DNA of 64,000 nt, taken from the NCBI GenBank assembly GCA_963783695.1, contig CAWAOM010000006.1:324715-388714 (forward strand). Reading direction: 5' to 3'. A program made the position numbers and the translations under genes. The notes below the pieces were generated by a model. The model saw only the letters and a list, made by a program, of their open reading frames with translations. It ran no database searches and had not been told where the DNA came from. Numbering within the stretch: the stretch's first letter is position 1; every line of letters starts with the position of its first letter. Below are positions 4,227 to 12,496 of the stretch, piece after piece. The stretch is from an uncultured Gammaproteobacteria bacterium (GTDB lineage: Bacteria > Pseudomonadota > Gammaproteobacteria > Steroidobacterales > BM003).

Positions 4227-4592
4227 TCAGTGGCGGTCCGGACCGCGATAGACGGCACCGGAGGTACAGGTCTCATGGATGACGACCTGCGACAGTCCTG
4301 GCAAGACATCGGCCAGGTGCTGCCAGATCCAGCGCGCGATATTCTCCGCGGTCGGATTCTCGAGACCGGAGACGTCATTGAGATAGTGATGATCAAGCTG
4401 TTCGAACACCGGCTGGAATGCGCTTTTGATATCGGCGAAATCGGTCACCCATCCGAGCTGCGGGTCCAACTCACCGCTGACGTGGATCTCCACGGCATAG
4501 GAATGACCATGCAGCCGGGCACACTTGTGGCCCTCCGGCACGTTCGGCAGTCGGTGCGCTGCCTCGATGTGAAATTTCTTGTAGATATCCAT
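4227..4592 (-). CDS. queD: 6-carboxy-5,6,7,8-tetrahydropterin synthase (6-pyruvoyl-tetrahydropterin synthase family)
   Basis: MDIYKKFHIEAAHRLPNVPEGHKCARLHGHSY...DHHYLND matches QueD/PTPS zinc-binding and catalytic motifs. Start set at the internal ATG 4592. Confidence 0.88.
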   Translation of the reverse strand: MDIYKKFHIEAAHRLPNVPEGHKCARLHGHSYAVEIHVSGELDPQLGWVTDFADIKSAFQPVFEQLDHHYLNDVSGLENPTAENIARWIWQHLADVLPGLSQVVIHETCTSGAVYRGPDRH

Positions 4593-4664
4593 GCATTCCA
4601 CCTGCGCGCGGCATTGTAGCACCGCGTCCCGATCGCGACCCGCCACCCGGGCAACCGCGCCCGG

Positions 4665-5318
4665 TCAAAGCAAATCAAGCAGCTGTGCCGGCTGGTCTAT
4701 CAGCCATCTCGCTCCGCTCCGACGCAGCTCGGATTCGGGGCGGAATCCCCATGTCACGCCGACGCCTTTCATCCCGGCCGCCCGCGCCGTCTCCATGTCG
4801 ATACCCGAGTCGCCAACAAACCTGACTGCCGCCGGTTCCAAACCCAGCTGCGCGGCAATTTGCAGCGCACCGTGCGGATCCGGCTTTGCCGGCAACGCCG
4901 CTCCGAGTCCGAGCACGACTTCGAAATGCCAGTCGGGAAGAAGATGAGCGACACACTTCCCGGCGAACTCATGCGGTTTGTTGGTCAGCACCGCCAACGC
5001 CACATCGCGCCGGCGAAGACTGTCGAGCAGCTCCGCGACCCCCGCGTACGGGCGGCTGTGCACATGCCAGCCGTCGGCATAGGCCAGACGGAAACGCTCG
5101 ACGGCCGCATCCACCAGGCGTCTGTCCGCCGCGGCAGCGGCCGGCAGCGCGCGTTCGAACAGCACATCGACCCCCGCGCCGATAAACGTCCTGTAAGCGG
5201 CGACCGGATGATCGTCGAAACCCAGCGAGCGCAGGGCGGCGTTGGCGCCCTCGGCGATATCCTCGAGCGTATCGAGCAGGGTTCCGTCCAGATCGAAAAT
5301 CACTGCCGTCGTTTGCAT
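4665..5318 (-). CDS. HAD-IA family hydrolase (phosphoglycolate phosphatase-like)
   Basis: DxDGT motif (VIFDLDGTLLDT), LTNK, and GDSGIDMETARAAGM motifs of HAD phosphatases. Confidence 0.8.
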   Translation of the reverse strand: MQTTAVIFDLDGTLLDTLEDIAEGANAALRSLGFDDHPVAAYRTFIGAGVDVLFERALPAAAAADRRLVDAAVERFRLAYADGWHVHSRPYAGVAELLDSLRRRDVALAVLTNKPHEFAGKCVAHLLPDWHFEVVLGLGAALPAKPDPHGALQIAAQLGLEPAAVRFVGDSGIDMETARAAGMKGVGVTWGFRPESELRRSGARWLIDQPAQLLDLL

Positions 5319-5414
5319 CGGGCTCCCTGCGGAAATCCGGGCTTGCGTGCCCAGCGGGCATGGTGTTAACTAACGCGCAGCCGCACAGCATAGCAATCAC
5401 GGTCACGCACCTAT

Positions 5415-5480
5415 ATGAGCGCCGCAATACTACAGGCAAATTGTTCCGCGAAGACACTTCGCCGACGCCGCAGGGAATAG
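5415..5480 (+). CDS. Candidate arg-operon leader peptide MSAAILQANCSAKTLRRRRRE (21 codons, five consecutive Arg codons before the stop)
   Basis: ATG 5415-5417, then codons CGC CGA CGC CGC AGG at 5460-5474, GAA, TAG 5478-5480. It lies 110 bp upstream of argF' and directly in front of alternative hairpins. No clear Shine-Dalgarno, so translation is inferred, not shown. Confidence 0.5.
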   Translation: MSAAILQANCSAKTLRRRRRE

Positions 5481-5485
5481 TCTGA

Positions 5486-5551
5486 GGCTGGGTCGCGTAC
5501 GGAACACCAGAGAAATATCCGACAACCCGGCCCGACAGGCTGGGTTTTTTT
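5486..5551 (+). promoter_or_regulatory. Candidate transcription attenuator: antiterminator (5486-5493 with 5525-5532) versus terminator (5524-5532 with 5538-5546 plus T7 run)
   Basis: The 8-mer GGCTGGGT occurs twice (5486-5493 and 5538-5545). Both copies are complementary (with one G-U pair) to ACCCGGCC at 5525-5532. The downstream pairing gives a 9-bp stem, a 5-nt loop, and TTTTTTT at 5545-5551, 40 bp before the argF' start. Confidence 0.55.
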
Positions 5552-5590
5552 ATTTCGCAATCATCAAACAAGGCAACGAGGTCGACAGGC

Positions 5591-6601
5591 GTGAGACATT
5601 TCCTTACTACCGAGGACTGGAGTCGCGACGAGCTGCAACGACTCCTCGACGATGCCGCCGCGCTCAAACGCGGGCAGGCGAGCAGTGCCCTCGCCGGCAA
5701 GACCATCGCGTTGATGTTCTTTAATCCCTCTCTGCGAACCCGATCATCTTTCGAAATCGGCGCGCGTCAGCTTGGCGGGCAGGCGATCGTCCTGGCACCC
5801 GGAAGGGACGCCTGGCCGCTGGAATTCGAAACCGGCGCGATCATGGATGGCGAGGCCGAAGAACACGTTCGCGAGGCAGCCCGAGTGCTGTCCCGTTACT
5901 GCGATTTGATTGCAATACGGGCATTTCCCAAATTTCAGGACTGGTCGGTCGACCGTGAAGACCGCCTGATCCGGGCCTTCGCCGAACACGCCGAGGTCCC
6001 GGTCATCAACATGGAGACGATTACGCATCCATGCCAGGAACTTGCCCTGATGCTTACGTTACAGGAACATCTTGGCTTCGCCGCGGGACGAAAATTCGTG
6101 CTCACCTGGACTTATCACCCGCGCCCGCTCAATACCGCGGTGGCCAATTCCGCGCTGCTGATCGCGAGTAAATTTGGCTACGACGTTACCCTGCTCTGCC
6201 CCGGCAACGATTATGTGCTCGATTCACGTTACATGAAAGCCGCCCAGGCCAACGCGGCCGCCGCGGGCGGCAGTGTTTCCTTGAGCCACGATATCGCGTC
6301 GGCTTACAGCGGCGCCGACTTCGTTTACGCCAAAAGCTGGGGCGCATTACCCTATTTTGGCCGCTGGGATGAGGAGCAACCGCTGCGCGACCGCAATCGC
6401 CACTTTATTGTCGATGAGCAAAAAATGGCGCTCACCAACAATGCCCGTTTCAGCCATTGCCTGCCGTGCCGGCGCAATGTGAAAGTTACCGATGCAGTCA
6501 TGGATGCCGACTATTGCACCGCAATCGATGAGGCTGAGAACAGGCTTCACGTGCAGAAGGCCCTGATGGCCAGGCTGATCGGCCAACCCCACTCGAAATA
6601 A
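5591..6601 (+). CDS. argF': N-acetylornithine carbamoyltransferase (AOTCase, ArgF')
   Basis: GTG start. [13 protein letters not shown]...[13 protein letters not shown]...[15 protein letters not shown]...AIRAFPKF...[15 protein letters not shown] closely parallels the Xanthomonas AOTCase rather than classical OTCase. Confidence 0.88.
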
Positions 6602-6620
6602 CAGGACGAAGGTAACGAAC

Positions 6621-7838
6621 ATGAGCAACAAGCAGGTCGTGCTCGCATTCTCCGGCGGTCTGGACACCAGCTTCTGCGTGCCGTGGCTGACTGAACAGGG
6701 TTATGAAGTGACGACGTTGTTTGTCGATACCGGCGGCGTCACGGCCGATGAACGCGCCTACATAGCCGCTCGCGCCGACGAACTCGGCGCCACTCGTCAC
6801 GAGGTAGTCGATGCCGGCGCCGAGGTATGGGAAGAGGTGGTGCTGCCGATGCTATGGGGTGGCTGTTTTTATCAGTTCCAGTACCCGCTGCTGTGCTCGG
6901 ATCGCTATGTGATCGTAAAAAAAGCACTGCAGCTATGCGATCAACTCGGCACACGTCACTTCGCTCATGGCTGCACCGGGATGGGTAACGACCAGGTGCG
7001 CTTCGATCTGACCGTGCGCGGACTCGGCAATTACAACATCATTGCCCCGATCCGCGAGATCCAGCAACTGCAAACCAATGTTCGTGACTATGAGCAGTCA
7101 TATCTCGAACAACACGGCTATTCCGTGCGCGCCAAAACATCGACCTACACGATGAACGAAAACCTGCTGGGTGTAACAATCTCGGGTTCGGAAGTCGATC
7201 GCTGGGAAACACCGGGATCCGCAACGTGGCAACTGACAAGACCGGCGGTGCAATGGCCCGGCGAGGCGCTGCAGGTACGGATTGGCTTCAAACAGGGCGT
7301 ACCGGTTTCAGTGGACGGAGAAGAGCTCGACGGGCCGCGGATACTCGGCATGCTGAATCAGCGCTTCGGCGCATACGGCGTTGGCCGCGGCATGTACACT
7401 GGCGATACCGTCATCGGCCTGAAGGGCCGGATTGTCTACGAAGCCCCGGCGCTCACCGCGTTGCAGGCCGCTCACCGGGCGCTCGAGGAAGCGGTATCGA
7501 CCCGCCATCAGAACGCATTCAAACCTGTCGCCGCGATGAAATGGGTGGAGTTGCTGTACCAGGGGTTCTTCTACGAACCACTCAAGACCGATCTGGAGGC
7601 GTACCTGCAGTCGTCGCAACGCGTCGTCAACGGCGAAGTGACGTTGCAGACAAGCGGAGGCAGCGTGGATGCCGTGGCTATCGATTCGCCGCATATTCTG
7701 CGCTCTGCCGGCGCCACCTACGCACAGTCCGCCGACTGGTCGGTGACCGAGGCGGAGGGCTTTATCAAGCTTTACGGCCAAAGCTCATCGTTATGGACAG
7801 CGGTGAACCAGAAATCCGCGGCCGCTCCAGCCGAATGA
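6621..7838 (+). CDS. argG: Argininosuccinate synthase
   Basis: [15 protein letters not shown]-pyrophosphatase motif, 405 aa type-I ArgG. Confidence 0.95.
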
Positions 7839-8926
7839 GCACGGTTCAACGCCAGACCATCGCCCACCTCGAGGCGCTCGTCGGATTCGACACGCGCAAC
7901 CCGCCACGCGCCATCGCCGAAGACGGGCTGTTCGCCTACCTGCGCGAGAACCTGAGTGGCTTCGCTTTTCACAGCGCGAATCACGGTGACGGATGCATCA
8001 GCCTGCTCGCCGTGCGCGGCTCACCCGACATCGTATTCAACTTTCATGTCGATACGGTGCCGGCCGCCGACGGCTGGCGCGACGACCCGTTGGCGCTGCG
8101 GGTAACCGCCGGGCGCGCCTATGGCCTGGGTGCCTGTGATATCAAGGGTGCCGCGGCCTGCATGCTCACTGCGGCGGCGCTGGCGGACGGTCCGCTGGCC
8201 TTGTTGTTTACCTCGGACGAGGAAGCGGGAAACAGCCGCTGTGTGCGCCGCTTTCTAGCCACCAGCCACGGCTTCAGCAACGCCATTGTCGCCGAACCAA
8301 CCGGTGCCAAAGCGGTACTCGCGCATCGCGGCATCGCCACCGCGACGATTGCCTTCAACGGCATCGCGGGACATGCTTCGGCCGCCCGCGCGCTGGAGGA
8401 CAATGCCATCCACCGGGCGCTTCACTGGGGAACCCGTGCGCTCGAATTCGCGCAGCAGAGACAGCACACGGAGTACGCGGGCCTCAACGGTATCCGCCTC
8501 AACATCGGTACCATCAGCGGCGGAGTAAAACCCAACGTGATAGCGGCCGAGGCTTCGCTGCGATTCGGCATCAGGCCCTTACCGGACCAGGATGGGCGGC
8601 GCTTGCTCGAACAATTGCGGCGGCTCGCCCCGGATACGCATGTCAGCGAGTGGCACGAGGGCTTTGTCGGCCCCGCCCTGCCGGGGCCTGGCGCCGAGCG
8701 CGAGGCAGCGGCAAGCCAGTTTGCGCAGCGTTGCGCCCTGCCGCCCGCCGCTGCGGTGAACTTCTGGACGGAAGCATCGCTGTTTTCCGCCGCAGGGATT
8801 CCCGCGCTGGTGTTCGGCCCGGGCGATATCGAACAGGCACACTGCGCGAACGAATGGGTCGCGCTCGAGCAACTCGACGCGGTTTCACGGCATTACATCA
8901 GGCTAATTGATCATGACAACGGATAA
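7835..8926 (+). CDS. argE: Acetylornithine/acetylcitrulline deacetylase (M20 peptidase family)
   Basis: Homologous part starts at [27 protein letters not shown] 7835 overlaps the argG stop (ATGA). HVDTVP, GACDIKG and SDEEAG motifs. The ORF-track start at 7226 is a spurious extension inside argG. Confidence 0.85.
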
Positions 8927-10226
8927 ACAGACCAGGCAGATCATCGTGCGGCTACTGGGAAACTTCGGTAGCCAAAAGGAAATCCAGCAGTATTTGCGAC
9001 GGTTTTCCAGTATCGAGAGTGAGAAATTCGCCGTGGTTAAAGTCGGTGGCGCCACACTGCATACTCAGCTCGGCGGACTCAGTTCGTCGCTGGCATTCCT
9101 GCAGCAGGTCGGGCTGACCCCGATCGTCGTCCATGGCGGTGGACCGCAACTCGACCTCGCGCTGGAAGCAGAAGGGATAAAGACCGAACGGCTCGACGGG
9201 CTGCGAGTCACGTCGCCATCGGTTCTCAAAATTGCGCGCAAAGTCTTTCAACGCGAGAACCTGCGCCTGGTAGAGGCATTGCGCGAAACCGGAACCCGCG
9301 CCACCTCTATCACCAATGGCGTTTTCGAGGCCGAACTGGTCGACCGCGATCGGCTTGGGCTGGTCGGCGCGGTCACGCAGGTTCACCTCGAAGCAGTCCG
9401 GGCATCGCTGCGCGCAAACATCATCCCGGTTATCTCGCCATTCGGCGAAACCGCCGACGGTCAGATACTGAATATCAACGCGGATATAGCGACCAACGAA
9501 CTGGTTCGCTCGGTCCAGCCTTTCAAAATTATCTTCCTGACCGGTACCGGAGGCATTCTCGATCGCGCGGGTGACGTCATTTCGTCGATCAACCTGAGCA
9601 CCGACTACCGGCTGCTGATGGAGCAGGACTGGCTTCATTCGGGTATGCGGCTGAAACTCGAGCAAATCCACGATTTGTTGAAAGATCTGCCGTTGTCGAC
9701 CTCGATATCGATTACCAAACCGACGCTGCTGGCCAAGGAACTGTTTACCTATCGGGGTTCGGGCACGCTGGTGCGCTTTGGCGAGAGCATTCACCTACAT
9801 CGCGACTGGGACGAGGTCGATCTCGGGCGGCTCAAACAGTTGCTCGAGACAAGTTTCCAGAAGACGTTGAGCCAGGACTATTTTGCAAACGCTGCCGTGG
9901 AAGCGGTGTACCTCAGCGACAGCTACCGTGCCGGCGCGGTCATCACCCGGGTCGGGGATTTCGCCTATCTCGACAAGTTCGCCGTCACCGAAGAGGCGCA
10001 GGGTGAAGGTCTCGGCGGCGCAGTGTGGCACCGGTTCCGCCAGGACTATCCCAGCATTTTCTGGCGCGCGCGTCCGAACAACCCGGTCAATACGTTCTAT
10101 TTCCAACACGCCGACGGGTGCATCAAGGGCAGTGAATGGCATGTGTTCTGGTGCGGTATCGACGATTTCGAGCAAATCAGCCACTGCGTCGACACAGCGA
10201 TGCAAGCGCGTGCGACACTGAGGTAA
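8913..10226 (+). CDS. argB: Bifunctional N-acetylglutamate synthase/kinase (ArgA/B type)
   Basis: N-terminal amino-acid kinase fold (VVKVGG, VVHGGGPQ, NINAD) fused to a C-terminal GNAT-like domain (FAVTEEAQGEGLGG), as in the Xanthomonas bifunctional enzyme. Overlaps the argE 3' end. Alternative TTG start at 8907. Confidence 0.85.
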   Translation: MTTDKQTRQIIVRLLGNFGSQKEIQQYLRRFSSIESEKFAVVKVGGATLHTQLGGLSSSLAFLQQVGLTPIVVHGGGPQLDLALEAEGIKTERLDGLRVTSPSVLKIARKVFQRENLRLVEALRETGTRATSITNGVFEAELVDRDRLGLVGAVTQVHLEAVRASLRANIIPVISPFGETADGQILNINADIATNELVRSVQPFKIIFLTGTGGILDRAGDVISSINLSTDYRLLMEQDWLHSGMRLKLEQIHDLLKDLPLSTSISITKPTLLAKELFTYRGSGTLVRFGESIHLHRDWDEVDLGRLKQLLETSFQKTLSQDYFANAAVEAVYLSDSYRAGAVITRVGDFAYLDKFAVTEEAQGEGLGGAVWHRFRQDYPSIFWRARPNNPVNTFYFQHADGCIKGSEWHVFWCGIDDFEQISHCVDTAMQARATLR

Positions 10227-10230
10227 TCGC

Positions 10231-11184
10231 ATGAGGGAGCCACAAAAAACCGTCGCGCTGATTGGCGCGCGTGGCCATGTCGGCGCAGAGTTAATGCGTC
10301 TGCTGTTTGCCCATCCTGGCTTCGAACTGGTGCTGGTCAGCTCGCGCGAGTATGCCGGTCAGGCGGTCGCCGCGCATGTCGATGGCGCTCCGGACGGCTT
10401 GTTTTTCGCGGCAGCCACGGCGGCACAGGTCGCAGAGCGCGAACCTGACGTTTGCATACTGGCACTGCCAAACGGTCTGGCCGATTCGTGGGTCAGGGCG
10501 ATCGATATGCGACAGCCCCAGACCGTGATTATTGACGTCTCGGCTGACTACCGCTTCGACCCGGGCTGGCATTACGGCCTGCCGGAACTGCGCTCCACTC
10601 CGGCCCATACGACGCGCATTTCGAATCCGGGATGCTATGCCACGGCAATGCAACTGGCGATCGCGCCGGTGGCGAACATTGTCGCCAGCCCGCCACACTG
10701 CTTCGGTGTTTCCGGCTACAGTGGCGCGGGCACTTCACCGTCGCCGCGTAACGACCGCGCGCGTCTGCGCGACAACCTGATACCGTACCAGCCAACAGGA
10801 CACCTGCATGAGCGCGAAGTCAGTTTCCAGTTGCCGACCGCGGTGCGCTTTACTCCGCATGTTGCGTCTTTCTTTCGCGGCATCGCGATGACCGTCGGCA
10901 TGGAACTGGACGATACCTACGAACTCGACGCAATAGTGCAACGTTACCGGGATGCCTATGCCGACGCGCCATTGCTGCGCGTGTCACCGGCAATCCCGGA
11001 AGTCGCCGTCAATGCCGGACACCATCACGCCTGTGTCGGTGGCTTTCAGCTCGACGACTCCGGCCGTTATCTCGTGACATTTGCCACGCTCGATAATCTG
11101 TTGAAAGGCGCGGCAACACAGGCGCTGCAAAACCTCAATCTGGCATGTGGTTTCGCCGAACTCGAGGGAATTCCCAATGACTGA
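10231..11184 (+). CDS. argC: N-acetyl-gamma-glutamyl-phosphate reductase (short type)
   Basis: VALIGARGHVGAEL Rossmann N-terminus and NPGCYAT active-site cysteine motif. Confidence 0.9.
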   Translation: MREPQKTVALIGARGHVGAELMRLLFAHPGFELVLVSSREYAGQAVAAHVDGAPDGLFFAAATAAQVAEREPDVCILALPNGLADSWVRAIDMRQPQTVIIDVSADYRFDPGWHYGLPELRSTPAHTTRISNPGCYATAMQLAIAPVANIVASPPHCFGVSGYSGAGTSPSPRNDRARLRDNLIPYQPTGHLHEREVSFQLPTAVRFTPHVASFFRGIAMTVGMELDDTYELDAIVQRYRDAYADAPLLRVSPAIPEVAVNAGHHHACVGGFQLDDSGRYLVTFATLDNLLKGAATQALQNLNLACGFAELEGIPND

Positions 11185-12496
11185 TTTTCTGTGGCAGAAA
11201 CCCGGCACCCGGATCGACGAGCGAATCATGCGGTTCATGGCCGGCGCTGACGTGGAACTCGATCGCCACCTGTTCCTGTACGATATTCGCGCCTCGCGAG
11301 TGCACGCCGCCGGACTGGCGCGAATCAACGTCCTCAGCGAGACTGAGGCGGACGCGATCTGTACGGAACTCGATCGCCTCGCAACACGTTTCGACGACGG
11401 CGACTTCGTCCTCGACCAGCGCTTCGAGGACGGCCACTCGGCAATCGAGGCATGGCTGACCGAGCATCTCGGCGATGTCGGCAAGAAAGTACATACCGGC
11501 CGCAGTCGCAACGACCAGGTTCTCGTCGCCAGCCGGTTGCTGCTGCGCGACAGCCTGGCGACGCTGGCCGATTTATGCGAACAAACCGCGGGCGCGTGTC
11601 TCGAACAGGCCCATGGCAGCGGCGCTATGCCAATGCCCGGCTACACTCATCTGCAGCGCGCCGTCGTCTCATCCGTTGCCACCTGGTTTGCTGCGTTTGC
11701 CGAAGGCTTCATCGATAACGGCCGACTTGCGCTCGACTGCGCGCATTGGATCGATGCCAATCCACTCGGCACCGCGGCAGGGTTCGGCGTGAACCTGCCG
11801 CTCGACCGCGCGTTCGTGACGTCTGAGCTGGAATTCTCACGAACCCAGGTCAACCCGATCTACGCCCAAAACAGCCGCGGAAAATTTGAACTGCAGACGT
11901 TGACCGTGCTGGCTCAGTCACTGCTGGACGTGCGCCGCTATGCCTGGGATCTGTCGCTTTTCACGACCGCCGAATTTGGCTTCGTCAGCCTGCCGGATGC
12001 ATTTACAACCGGCTCCTCGATCATGCCCAATAAGCGCAATCCCGATCTCGTCGAATTATTGCGGGCCAGTTACCCCACGGTGCAGGGCGCCATGACCGAA
12101 TTGCAAAGCCTGTTGTCGCTACCCTCCGGCTATCACCGCGATCTGCAAAACACAAAGGGGCCTCTGATTCGTGCGCTCGTCCATGGTCTCGACGCAATGG
12201 CGCTGATGCCCGATCTCGTGCGCGCTACGAAATTCATTGCCGAGCGCCTCGAAGCTGCGCTGGAACCGTCGATGTATGCGACCGACCGGGCCATCGAGAT
12301 GACCGCATCGGGCATTCCCTTTCGCGACGCCTACCGCCGCGTTCGCGAGCAATACGACAGCCTCGCCGAATGCACCGCCGCCGACAGCATCGCCGCCCGG
12401 GTATCGCCCGGCGCCCCGGGGGACCTGCAACTCGGGGTTCTCGGCAAACGCCTCGAGGAGTTGCGCAAGATACGGCGCTCGGACACGTCTTCATGA
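11177..12496 (+). CDS. argH: Argininosuccinate lyase
   Basis: Fumarate-lyase signature GSSIMPNKRNPD. Start at ATG 11177 (MTDFLWQKPG) overlaps the argC end by 8 nt. Confidence 0.9.
   Translation: MTDFLWQKPGTRIDERIMRFMAGADVELDRHLFLYDIRASRVHAAGLARINVLSETEADAICTELDRLATRFDDGDFVLDQRFEDGHSAIEAWLTEHLGDVGKKVHTGRSRNDQVLVASRLLLRDSLATLADLCEQTAGACLEQAHGSGAMPMPGYTHLQRAVVSSVATWFAAFAEGFIDNGRLALDCAHWIDANPLGTAAGFGVNLPLDRAFVTSELEFSRTQVNPIYAQNSRGKFELQTLTVLAQSLLDVRRYAWDLSLFTTAEFGFVSLPDAFTTGSSIMPNKRNPDLVELLRASYPTVQGAMTELQSLLSLPSGYHRDLQNTKGPLIRALVHGLDAMALMPDLVRATKFIAERLEAALEPSMYATDRAIEMTASGIPFRDAYRRVREQYDSLAECTAADSIAARVSPGAPGDLQLGVLGKRLEELRKIRRSDTSS

Follow-up and report, generated by a model that had tools for sequence, protein, structure and literature searches.

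To our knowledge, arginine biosynthesis does not figure in the accepted repertoire of operons under leader-peptide attenuation (trp, his, leu, thr, ilv, phe, pheST and others), and arginine control is taught either as repression by ArgR or, in the Firmicutes, as T-boxes. In the eukaryotic case of the fungal AAP, the upstream open reading frame (ORF) of arg-2/CPA1 uses the translating ribosome to put a pathway gene under the influence of arginine; the nascent peptide senses free arginine and the stall at the stop codon of the upstream ORF represses translation, with neither a run of Arg codons nor transcription termination. In Salmonella, pausing at consecutive Arg codons of the speF leader orf34 (SpeFL) under low arginine re-folds the mRNA and raises expression (PMC6386406). 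A survey from 2005 gave T-boxes as the only RNA-level control of arginine genes (PMC1262725). Here we describe a leader element at positions 5415-5551 of a 64,000-nucleotide (nt) stretch of DNA, hereafter called the window, from an uncultured Gammaproteobacteria bacterium (GenBank assembly GCA_963783695.1, contig CAWAOM010000006.1). The element precedes an arginine biosynthesis operon and, with a probability of about 0.8, we read it as a classical ribosome-mediated attenuator which would sense charged tRNA-Arg and control the genes argF'-argG-argE-argB-argC-argH.

All parts of the element are located on the plus strand, within the 272-nt intergenic gap between argF' and a divergent HAD phosphatase gene. 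The leader-peptide ORF extends from 5415 to 5480 (ATG at 5415-5417, TAG at 5478-5480), encodes the product MSAAILQANCSAKTLRRRRRE in 21 codons and lies 110 nt 5' of argF'. Its regulatory Arg run (CGC CGA CGC CGC AGG, 5460-5474) is followed by a single GAA codon (5475-5477) and the stop. Segment 2 (GGCTGGGT, 5486-5493) is a copy of the terminator 3' arm and would serve as the 5' arm of an antiterminator, segment 3 (AACCCGGCC, 5524-5532) is common to antiterminator and terminator, and segment 4 together with a T7 tract (GGCTGGGTT, 5538-5551) supplies the 3' arm and the U-tail of the terminator. Within segment 3, the stretch ACCCGGCC at 5525-5532 is able to pair with either copy of GGCTGGGT (5486-5493 and 5538-5545). 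A preliminary description of this DNA had reported the ORF, the five Arg codons with GAA and TAG, the duplicated 8-mer and ACCCGGCC, and direct reading places each of them where it had been put.

The intrinsic terminator stem (5524-5546) consists of 9 pairs with a 5-nt loop and a T7 tail running to 5551. A consensus terminator scan returned exactly this one terminator, ending 40 nt 5' of argF', in agreement with what had been claimed from the letters alone. Its hairpin has a folding energy of -15.3 kcal/mol (z = -4.3), none of the 200 shuffles being equally stable, and its motif turns up a single time in the window and in none of 100 shuffles. The antiterminator fold (5486-5537) reaches -19.1 kcal/mol (z = -2.7), a stability equalled by 1 of 200 shuffles; the 8-bp pairing of segments 2 and 3 is the minimum free energy (MFE) structure of the free RNA 5486-5537 and makes up 74% of its ensemble. 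An inner stem-loop at 5497-5523, formed by GT.CGGA (5497-5503) with TCCGAC (5518-5523), is part of this MFE structure, and its counterpart in the Rhodanobacteraceae is GTCG...CGAC around a variable hairpin. Of 20,000 dinucleotide shuffles of the gap, 18 produced an ATG-started ORF with at least five Arg codons in a row (P ~0.0009). Among the Arg codons of the window genes, CGA has a share of 7% and AGG of 6%. Scans with the terminator motif and with a covariance model detected no second copy of the element elsewhere in the window.

For the comparison with relatives, 93 argF' loci were collected, 80 by argF' protein only (one genome per species) and 13 by the AOTCase of Xanthomonas campestris, a query taken from a PDB alignment; the search with the argF' protein of the window gave close relatives only. 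The nearest relatives are metagenome-assembled genomes (MAGs) of uncultured Gammaproteobacteria whose argF' is 95%, 90% and 86% identical, and the other loci come from Rhodanobacter, Dyella, Frateuria, Fulvimonas, Dokdonella, Lysobacter, Pseudoxanthomonas, Cognatilysobacter, X. campestris and unclassified MAGs. The architecture, namely an ORF with an Arg cluster, a copy of the terminator 3' arm at or near its stop codon and the terminator, is kept in 89 of the 93 loci, with compensatory changes in the duplicated arm, as the attenuator reading of the preliminary description would lead one to expect. The terminator itself, of the pattern (A/G)CCC(G/A)GCC-loop-G(C/T)(C/T)GGG(T/C)-T run, is conserved in 90 of the 93 loci. 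The four exceptions are L038 (labelled Myxococcales), L073 (Polyangiaceae), L022 and L093, and in loci labelled Myxococcota or Alphaproteobacteria the element was not found. In L022 (1291-1476), an AT-rich MAG, a terminator is present 27 nt 5' of argF' with no Arg ORF, while L093 (1327-1480) has a degenerate hairpin and retains promoter-like boxes and an ORF beginning MRRWCEPRR. The element is co-oriented with argF' and abuts its 5' side whatever the upstream neighbour, which according to lineage is the divergent HAD gene, a P-II gene or a conserved ORF without a Pfam match. A metagenome search with the pattern CGCCGAC-N-GGGT-N-ACCCRGCC was too unspecific, the terminator being present in 0 of the 120 returned loci.

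An alignment of 78 sequences contains invariant blocks at CGCCGAC (CGC-CGA), at segments 2, 3 and 4 and at the T run. Among 77 distinct leaders the antiterminator pairing of segments 2 and 3 is intact in 95.5% of cells, as compared with 19-57% in slid controls, and compensatory changes are seen at 2 of its 8 pairs. For the terminator the paired share is 90.4% of cells, with compensatory changes (G-C to A-U and A-U to G-C) at 3 of its 9 pairs. Independently of any alignment, at least 7 bp of contiguous complement to segment 3 is found 12-75 nt upstream of it in 86% of the loci, against 9% of shuffles. The three arms covary as a set, reading GCCGGGT/ACCCGGC/GCCGGGT in the Rhodanobacteraceae (55 loci) and GCTGGGT/ACCCAGC/GCTGGGT in the Xanthomonadaceae and others (at least 7 loci), and arm variants of the form GCCC.../...GGGC are present too. 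RNAalifold on a broad alignment of 53 sequences yielded next to no structure (-1.7 kcal/mol, 6 pairs), owing to the poor alignment of the linkers, and the motif-anchored counts given above were used in its place.

Upstream of the ORF, promoter-like boxes can be recognized by their conservation at 5343-5371 of the plus strand (TTGCGT at 5343-5348, N17, TTAACT at 5366-5371). These boxes are wholly conserved in the close relatives L001, L002 and L089; TTGCGC-N17-TTAAGT is retained in L093 despite the divergence of the remainder of its leader, and equivalent boxes (TTGCxx-N17-GAGGAT or TTGCxx-N17-CATGAT) stand just 5' of the leader ORF in other lineages. Strict sigma-70 scans gave no promoter in the window, L009 or L081. 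From the position of the boxes, transcription in the window organism may start near 5378, some tens of nt 5' of 5415. The whole region 5328-5400 is near-invariant among close relatives and could hide an operator, and in many proteobacteria control by ArgR is the norm. It could thus be argued that the hairpin acts constitutively, as a partial terminator or an insulator, or that it serves mRNA stability, and that the operon is controlled at its promoter by ArgR or another repressor. We give this explanation hardly any credence, as it leaves unexplained both the conserved, covarying upstream copy of the terminator 3' arm and the Arg-codon ORF, translated by its signature, which ends on that copy. 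The hairpin can also be excluded as the terminator of an upstream gene, since the HAD gene is divergent and its transcript cannot be terminated there. Matches to the ARG box (WNTGAATWWWWATTCANW, 18 bp) with up to 3 mismatches number 0 in the 64-kb window, the argR gene itself not having been searched for; a divergent operator or a different repressor may still be compatible with this negative. Promoter control could in any case coexist with attenuation.

Thirteen representative leader peptides are mostly unrelated to each other, and the sole feature common to them is a cluster of 2-5 Arg codons, Arg being their commonest residue (18%). Besides RRRRRE in the window, ...SPRRE in L089 and ...SSRRRSRRLQRSRAG, all three ending at the stop codon, they include ...HDRRRRPSEG..., ...NLRRRNL..., ...NARRRDRRPL..., ...ILRRRNGG..., ...VPRRAMRRN..., ...GRLRRCPRQ..., ...SISRRRRTG... 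and ...LSHRRTN.... The dominant family, here called the main family and distributed from Xanthomonas to Rhodanobacter, has the form ...[ST]A[RYW]MA[AS]GMTSRARRPxxxxxAG before its stop codon (core examples at L012:1326-1445 and L081:1281-1397). The spacing of the parts, on which the preliminary description had based its attenuation geometry, is conserved as well: in 12 of the 13 leader types the distance from the start of the last clustered Arg codon to segment 2 is 11-23 nt, and the stop codon, always on or beside the antiterminator arm, falls between 8 nt before and 24 nt after the point where segment 2 begins. As judged from these distances, the arrangement of Arg codons, stop codon and segment 2 fits a ribosome footprint.

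The main-family ORF carries a coding signature. In a DNA alignment built blind to the peptide, the entropy at codon positions 1, 2 and 3 is 0.18, 0.10 and 0.74 over the 13 core codons (permutation p = 0.0003), and no three-base periodicity exists in the 3' non-coding part of the same leaders. Because of this clear periodicity, the main-family ORF appears to be translated. Codon differences in this family comprise 187 synonymous versus 52 non-synonymous ones, a signature which suggests that purifying selection acts on the peptide itself and which is more surprising than the translation signal. Its stop codon, which overlaps the final base of segment 2, may be TAG, TAA or TGA although its position hardly shifts.

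The conservation of the core [ST]A[RYW]MA[AS]GMTSRARRP throughout the order at the amino-acid level, together with the invariance of the CGA-CCG (Arg-Pro) codon pair including its third positions, brings up an attenuator of another type, in which a nascent arrest peptide would detect free arginine, much as the fungal AAP or SpeFL detect their ligands, or an RNA-binding protein would make the choice between the 2:3 and 3:4 pairings. The RARRP end of the family also resembles SecM-type arrest motifs. However, conservation of the peptide beyond the regulatory codons, as expected of a ligand-sensing arrest peptide of the AAP, SpeFL or TnaC type, is seen in the main family and not in the window's clade (ORF homologues in L001, L002 and L089/L090). 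The leader of the window shares the N-terminus MSAA[IV] with the main-family leader MSAAVYTATVL..., yet its clade has lost the family core and keeps only the Arg run, while the other residues drift (MSAAILQANCSAK..., MSAAILHPNCSGK..., MSEVILHPNRSGS...). The 13 mostly unrelated peptides with nothing but Arg codons in common are equally difficult to accommodate, neither a binding motif nor a protein emerged as a candidate, and a stall at Arg/Pro induced by arginine would free segment 2 and raise expression, the opposite of what a biosynthetic operon requires. Replacement of codon counting by such a sensor is therefore very unlikely in our judgement. Somewhat less remote, though still doubtful, is the idea that the main-family leader does more than count codons, as an arrest or tuning peptide or as a micro-protein acting in trans, in which case sRNA-Xoo5 (see below) would be a dual-function RNA, at once cis attenuator, coding RNA and perhaps trans sRNA, and the RRRRR leader of the window a simplified derivative. 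A leader peptide conserved throughout the order is in any event left unexplained by the attenuator model alone.

The preliminary description had cautioned that the leader ATG lacks a convincing Shine-Dalgarno sequence. This holds for the window, and its bearing is softened by the xanthomonads, since the genes of X. campestris pv. vesicatoria (Xcv) lack a consensus Shine-Dalgarno sequence and 14% of its mRNAs are leaderless (PMC3300014). In the Xanthomonadaceae the leader ATG is positioned 9-10 nt past a conserved GAGGAT/GAGCAT/CAGAAT box (L081:1227-1244 and equivalents in L082-L088), and the consensus of the Rfam family Xoo5 opens with 'cuAUG', 2 nt 5' of the leader AUG; for this reason the peptide would there be read from an essentially leaderless RNA. 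The Rhodanobacteraceae would have a 5' untranslated region (UTR) of ~25-30 nt with a GGAA motif.

The search of Rfam, which the preliminary description had pointed to as a check, gave a divided answer. The window (5250-5700) has no match to RF02242 (Xoo5) even at E <=10, and the only cis-regulatory matches at this threshold, T-boxes included in the search, are chance terminator-like ones. RF02242 does match exactly on the leaders of the Xanthomonadaceae, with 146.7 bits in X. campestris (L081:1240-1363), 103.6 in L088, 76.5 in L083 and 53 in L086 (gathering score 50 bits), whereas none of the Rhodanobacteraceae leaders reaches the gathering score, and these loci matched no other Rfam family either. 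In X. campestris (L081) the match sits 5' of argF' and has the leader ORF ...GMTSRARRP... and segment 2 in common with the element described here. The consensus structure of Xoo5 holds a CCGG/CCCA:UGGG/CCGG hairpin, which we read as a 1:2 hairpin sequestering segment 2, and the model ends 5' of segment 3, so that the terminator and the attenuator logic lie outside the family. When 43 leaders of Rhodanobacteraceae and Lysobacteraceae were made into a covariance model, with the window's clade left out, the best match of this model in the window was a full-length one at 5437-5552, weak at 13.6 bits (E ~0.02 under a rough calibration). Having the same position and the same parts, the window element may be regarded, with this weak similarity, as a homologue of Xoo5.

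The founding member, sRNA-Xoo5, was cloned from Xanthomonas oryzae pv. oryzae and its 5' end was determined by RACE (rapid amplification of cDNA ends; Liang et al. 2011, PMC3039613). Northern analysis detected RNAs of ~130 and ~100 nt, the longer of which was gone in late growth, and arginine, argF or a leader are nowhere mentioned for it (PMC3039613). A transcription start site has been reported for the Xcv homologue (PMC3300014). The premature 3' end near 5551 that the preliminary description had named as a check has a counterpart in Xanthomonas, where the homologous leader is the detected small RNA (sRNA) of 124-130 nt. Rfam lists the family as 'Gene; sRNA', and this entry type, together with the discrete RNA of ~100-130 nt of Liang et al., would be in keeping with a stand-alone trans-acting sRNA equipped with its own terminator, for which the position before argF', the ORF and the Arg codons are incidental. 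Attenuator-derived RNAs can act in trans too, as is reported for rnTrpL (PMC6614838); such a role would be an addition to attenuation and not a substitute for it. The element, however, is always co-oriented with argF' and directly 5' of it behind any upstream gene, its ORF has a three-base periodicity, Arg codons are all that the otherwise unrelated peptides share, and a simple sRNA would have no use for a second, upstream copy of its terminator arm. A purely trans-acting sRNA is accordingly an explanation we hold to be highly improbable, and the orphan sRNA-Xoo5 is probably the leader of an arginine attenuator.

As a ribosome-mediated attenuator, the element of the window could work as follows. 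The transcript would begin some tens of nt 5' of 5415 and a ribosome would translate the 21-codon leader. With Arg-tRNA plentiful, the ribosome would reach the TAG at 5478-5480 and place its footprint over 5486-5493; with segment 2 covered, segment 3 (5524-5532) would pair with segment 4 (5538-5546) and transcription would terminate at the T7 tract, at about 5551. With Arg-tRNA scarce, the ribosome would stall on 5460-5474 and melt a weak 1:2 hairpin, leaving segment 2, 14 nt beyond the last Arg codon, free to capture the nascent segment 3 (-19 kcal/mol), so that no terminator forms and the polymerase would read through into argF'. The predicted 1:2 or anti-antiterminator hairpin (5463-5495, plus strand), in which CGACGCC.CAGG (5463-5474) pairs with TCTG.GGC...GTCG (5481-5495), spans the Arg codons and segment 2 and is the MFE structure of the nascent leader minus segment 3; it would enforce termination on untranslated transcripts.

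Several observations speak against this interpretation and account for the reserve with which it is put forward. The five-Arg run is not strictly conserved, because L089/L090 (1344-1406), with an argF' 86% identical and the synteny of the window, hold ...SPRRE, in which no more than two Arg codons stand side by side. Conservation of the main-family peptide at the amino-acid level would be needless for an attenuator that plainly counts codons. Covariation amounts to few independent events (2 of 8 and 3 of 9 pairs) because the arms are highly conserved, and the kinship of the sequences inflates the shuffle statistics. At -14.7 kcal/mol (z = -0.5) the 1:2 hairpin is no better than shuffles, and its form differs among lineages, analogous and non-identical hairpins being predicted in relatives. 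The two conformers envisaged in the preliminary description are each more stable than expected when folded by themselves, but the fold of the whole region 5400-5595 is unremarkable (z = -1.16). Translation of the ORF in the window organism remains a prediction: no Shine-Dalgarno sequence was found 5' of the ATG at 5415, and the window copy would not be leaderless, because its 5' UTR is placed at ~37 nt.

The operon downstream extends from 5591 to 12496 on the plus strand in the order argF'-argG-argE-argB-argC-argH, identified by NCBIfam equivalog matches, with argB of the bifunctional type. The first gene, argF' (5591-6601), is an N-acetylornithine carbamoyltransferase by NF003384 (8.8e-171), has its start codon GTG at 5591 and is preceded by an SD-like GAGG at 5578-5581; argG follows at 6621-7838. 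Mechanical ORF calls are misleading at two 5' ends. The argE ORF (7226-8926, 566 aa) shows its family match only from residue 204 onward, and the true start would rather lie near 7835, immediately past argG. The argH ORF (11147-12496) and the end of argC share 38 nt. The 5' ends of argE and argH point to tight or overlapping junctions, as is typical of a co-translated operon. On the other side of the gap, on the minus strand and divergent from argF', are the genes for the HAD-type phosphatase (4665-5318), which forms the 5' flank of the gap, and for a QueD/PTPS protein (4227-4646). A minus-strand ORF at 4969-5706, running across the leader region, has no Pfam match and was taken as spurious.

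In most Lysobacterales an ORF of 133-187 aa without a Pfam match is present on the same strand just 5' of the arg leader (L081:676-1191, L082:658-1125, L083:718-1215, L086:680-1195). Its C-terminus is conserved as '...DPGxRLR[IV]RVSVxP' and a divergent cysS precedes it; the clade of the window has the HAD phosphatase and QueD/PTPS genes in its place. Leader ORFs are now and then annotated by gene callers (34 aa in L087), with the label 'hypothetical protein' in Luteimonas, and are otherwise missed by genome pipelines at present. Six leader peptides compared with NCBIfam and Pfam matched no family. One protein cluster at 90% identity containing 34-aa leaders (of Luteimonas and others) also holds 514-aa fungal exopolyphosphatases, one of them as its representative, and looks like a clustering artefact; a mixed cluster of this kind would hide the leader peptides from searches that use cluster representatives.

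If the attenuator reading is correct, an Arg attenuator present throughout the order would fill a gap in the attenuation repertoire and would account for arginine control in the Lysobacterales/Xanthomonadales, an order with important pathogens of plants and humans among its members. The control of the unusual N-acetylornithine/argF' pathway of xanthomonads would thereby be explained; on transcriptional control, the description of the X. campestris arg operon is silent. Xoo5 (RF02242) would have to be reassigned as a cis-regulatory leader, an annotation fix for both Rfam and genome pipelines. The element could also be of use as a compact part responding to arginine or tRNA-Arg in high-GC Gammaproteobacteria, and the natural series of Arg leaders, from RR to RRRRR with a fixed CGA, could serve studies of codon-specific stalling and leaderless translation. 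Rfam, Pfam and NCBIfam contain no family for an Arg leader-peptide attenuator of an arg operon, and none was found in the full-text literature, work in subscription journals being outside the scope of that search. The mechanism is of the textbook type and its use for arginine biosynthesis seems not to have been described before, in line with the preliminary description; subscription journals may contain an earlier account.

Among known systems, the element shares most with the trp/his/leu/thr/ilv/phe attenuators (trpL, hisL): a leader ORF with clustered codons for the end product, a stop codon beside segment 2, mutually exclusive 2:3 and 3:4 pairings and a position directly before the biosynthetic operon. 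It differs from them in its amino acid, arginine, in a 1:2 hairpin that is weak or variable, in the lack of a Shine-Dalgarno sequence, in an ORF that is near-leaderless in Xanthomonas and in a main-family peptide conserved well past the regulatory codons; no similarity to known amino-acid leaders was detected by sequence or in Rfam. With Xoo5 it has the position, the leader ORF and segment 2 in common, the difference being that Xoo5 is filed as an orphan sRNA whose model stops short of the terminator. ArgR and the ARG box achieve the same output, the repression of arginine genes at abundant arginine, through a box which is absent from the window. The Arg T-box of Firmicutes likewise reads the charging of tRNA-Arg with a terminator/antiterminator switch, whereas here the reading would be done by the ribosome and not by binding of tRNA to RNA. 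SpeFL (PMC6386406) is the nearest functional analogue, likewise relying on a translated upstream ORF. It controls ornithine decarboxylase rather than arginine biosynthesis, its peptide (DUF2618) is unrelated, and its outputs are Rho termination, occlusion of the ribosome-binding site and RNase G decay, in place of the intrinsic terminator and antiterminator pair that stands before argF'.

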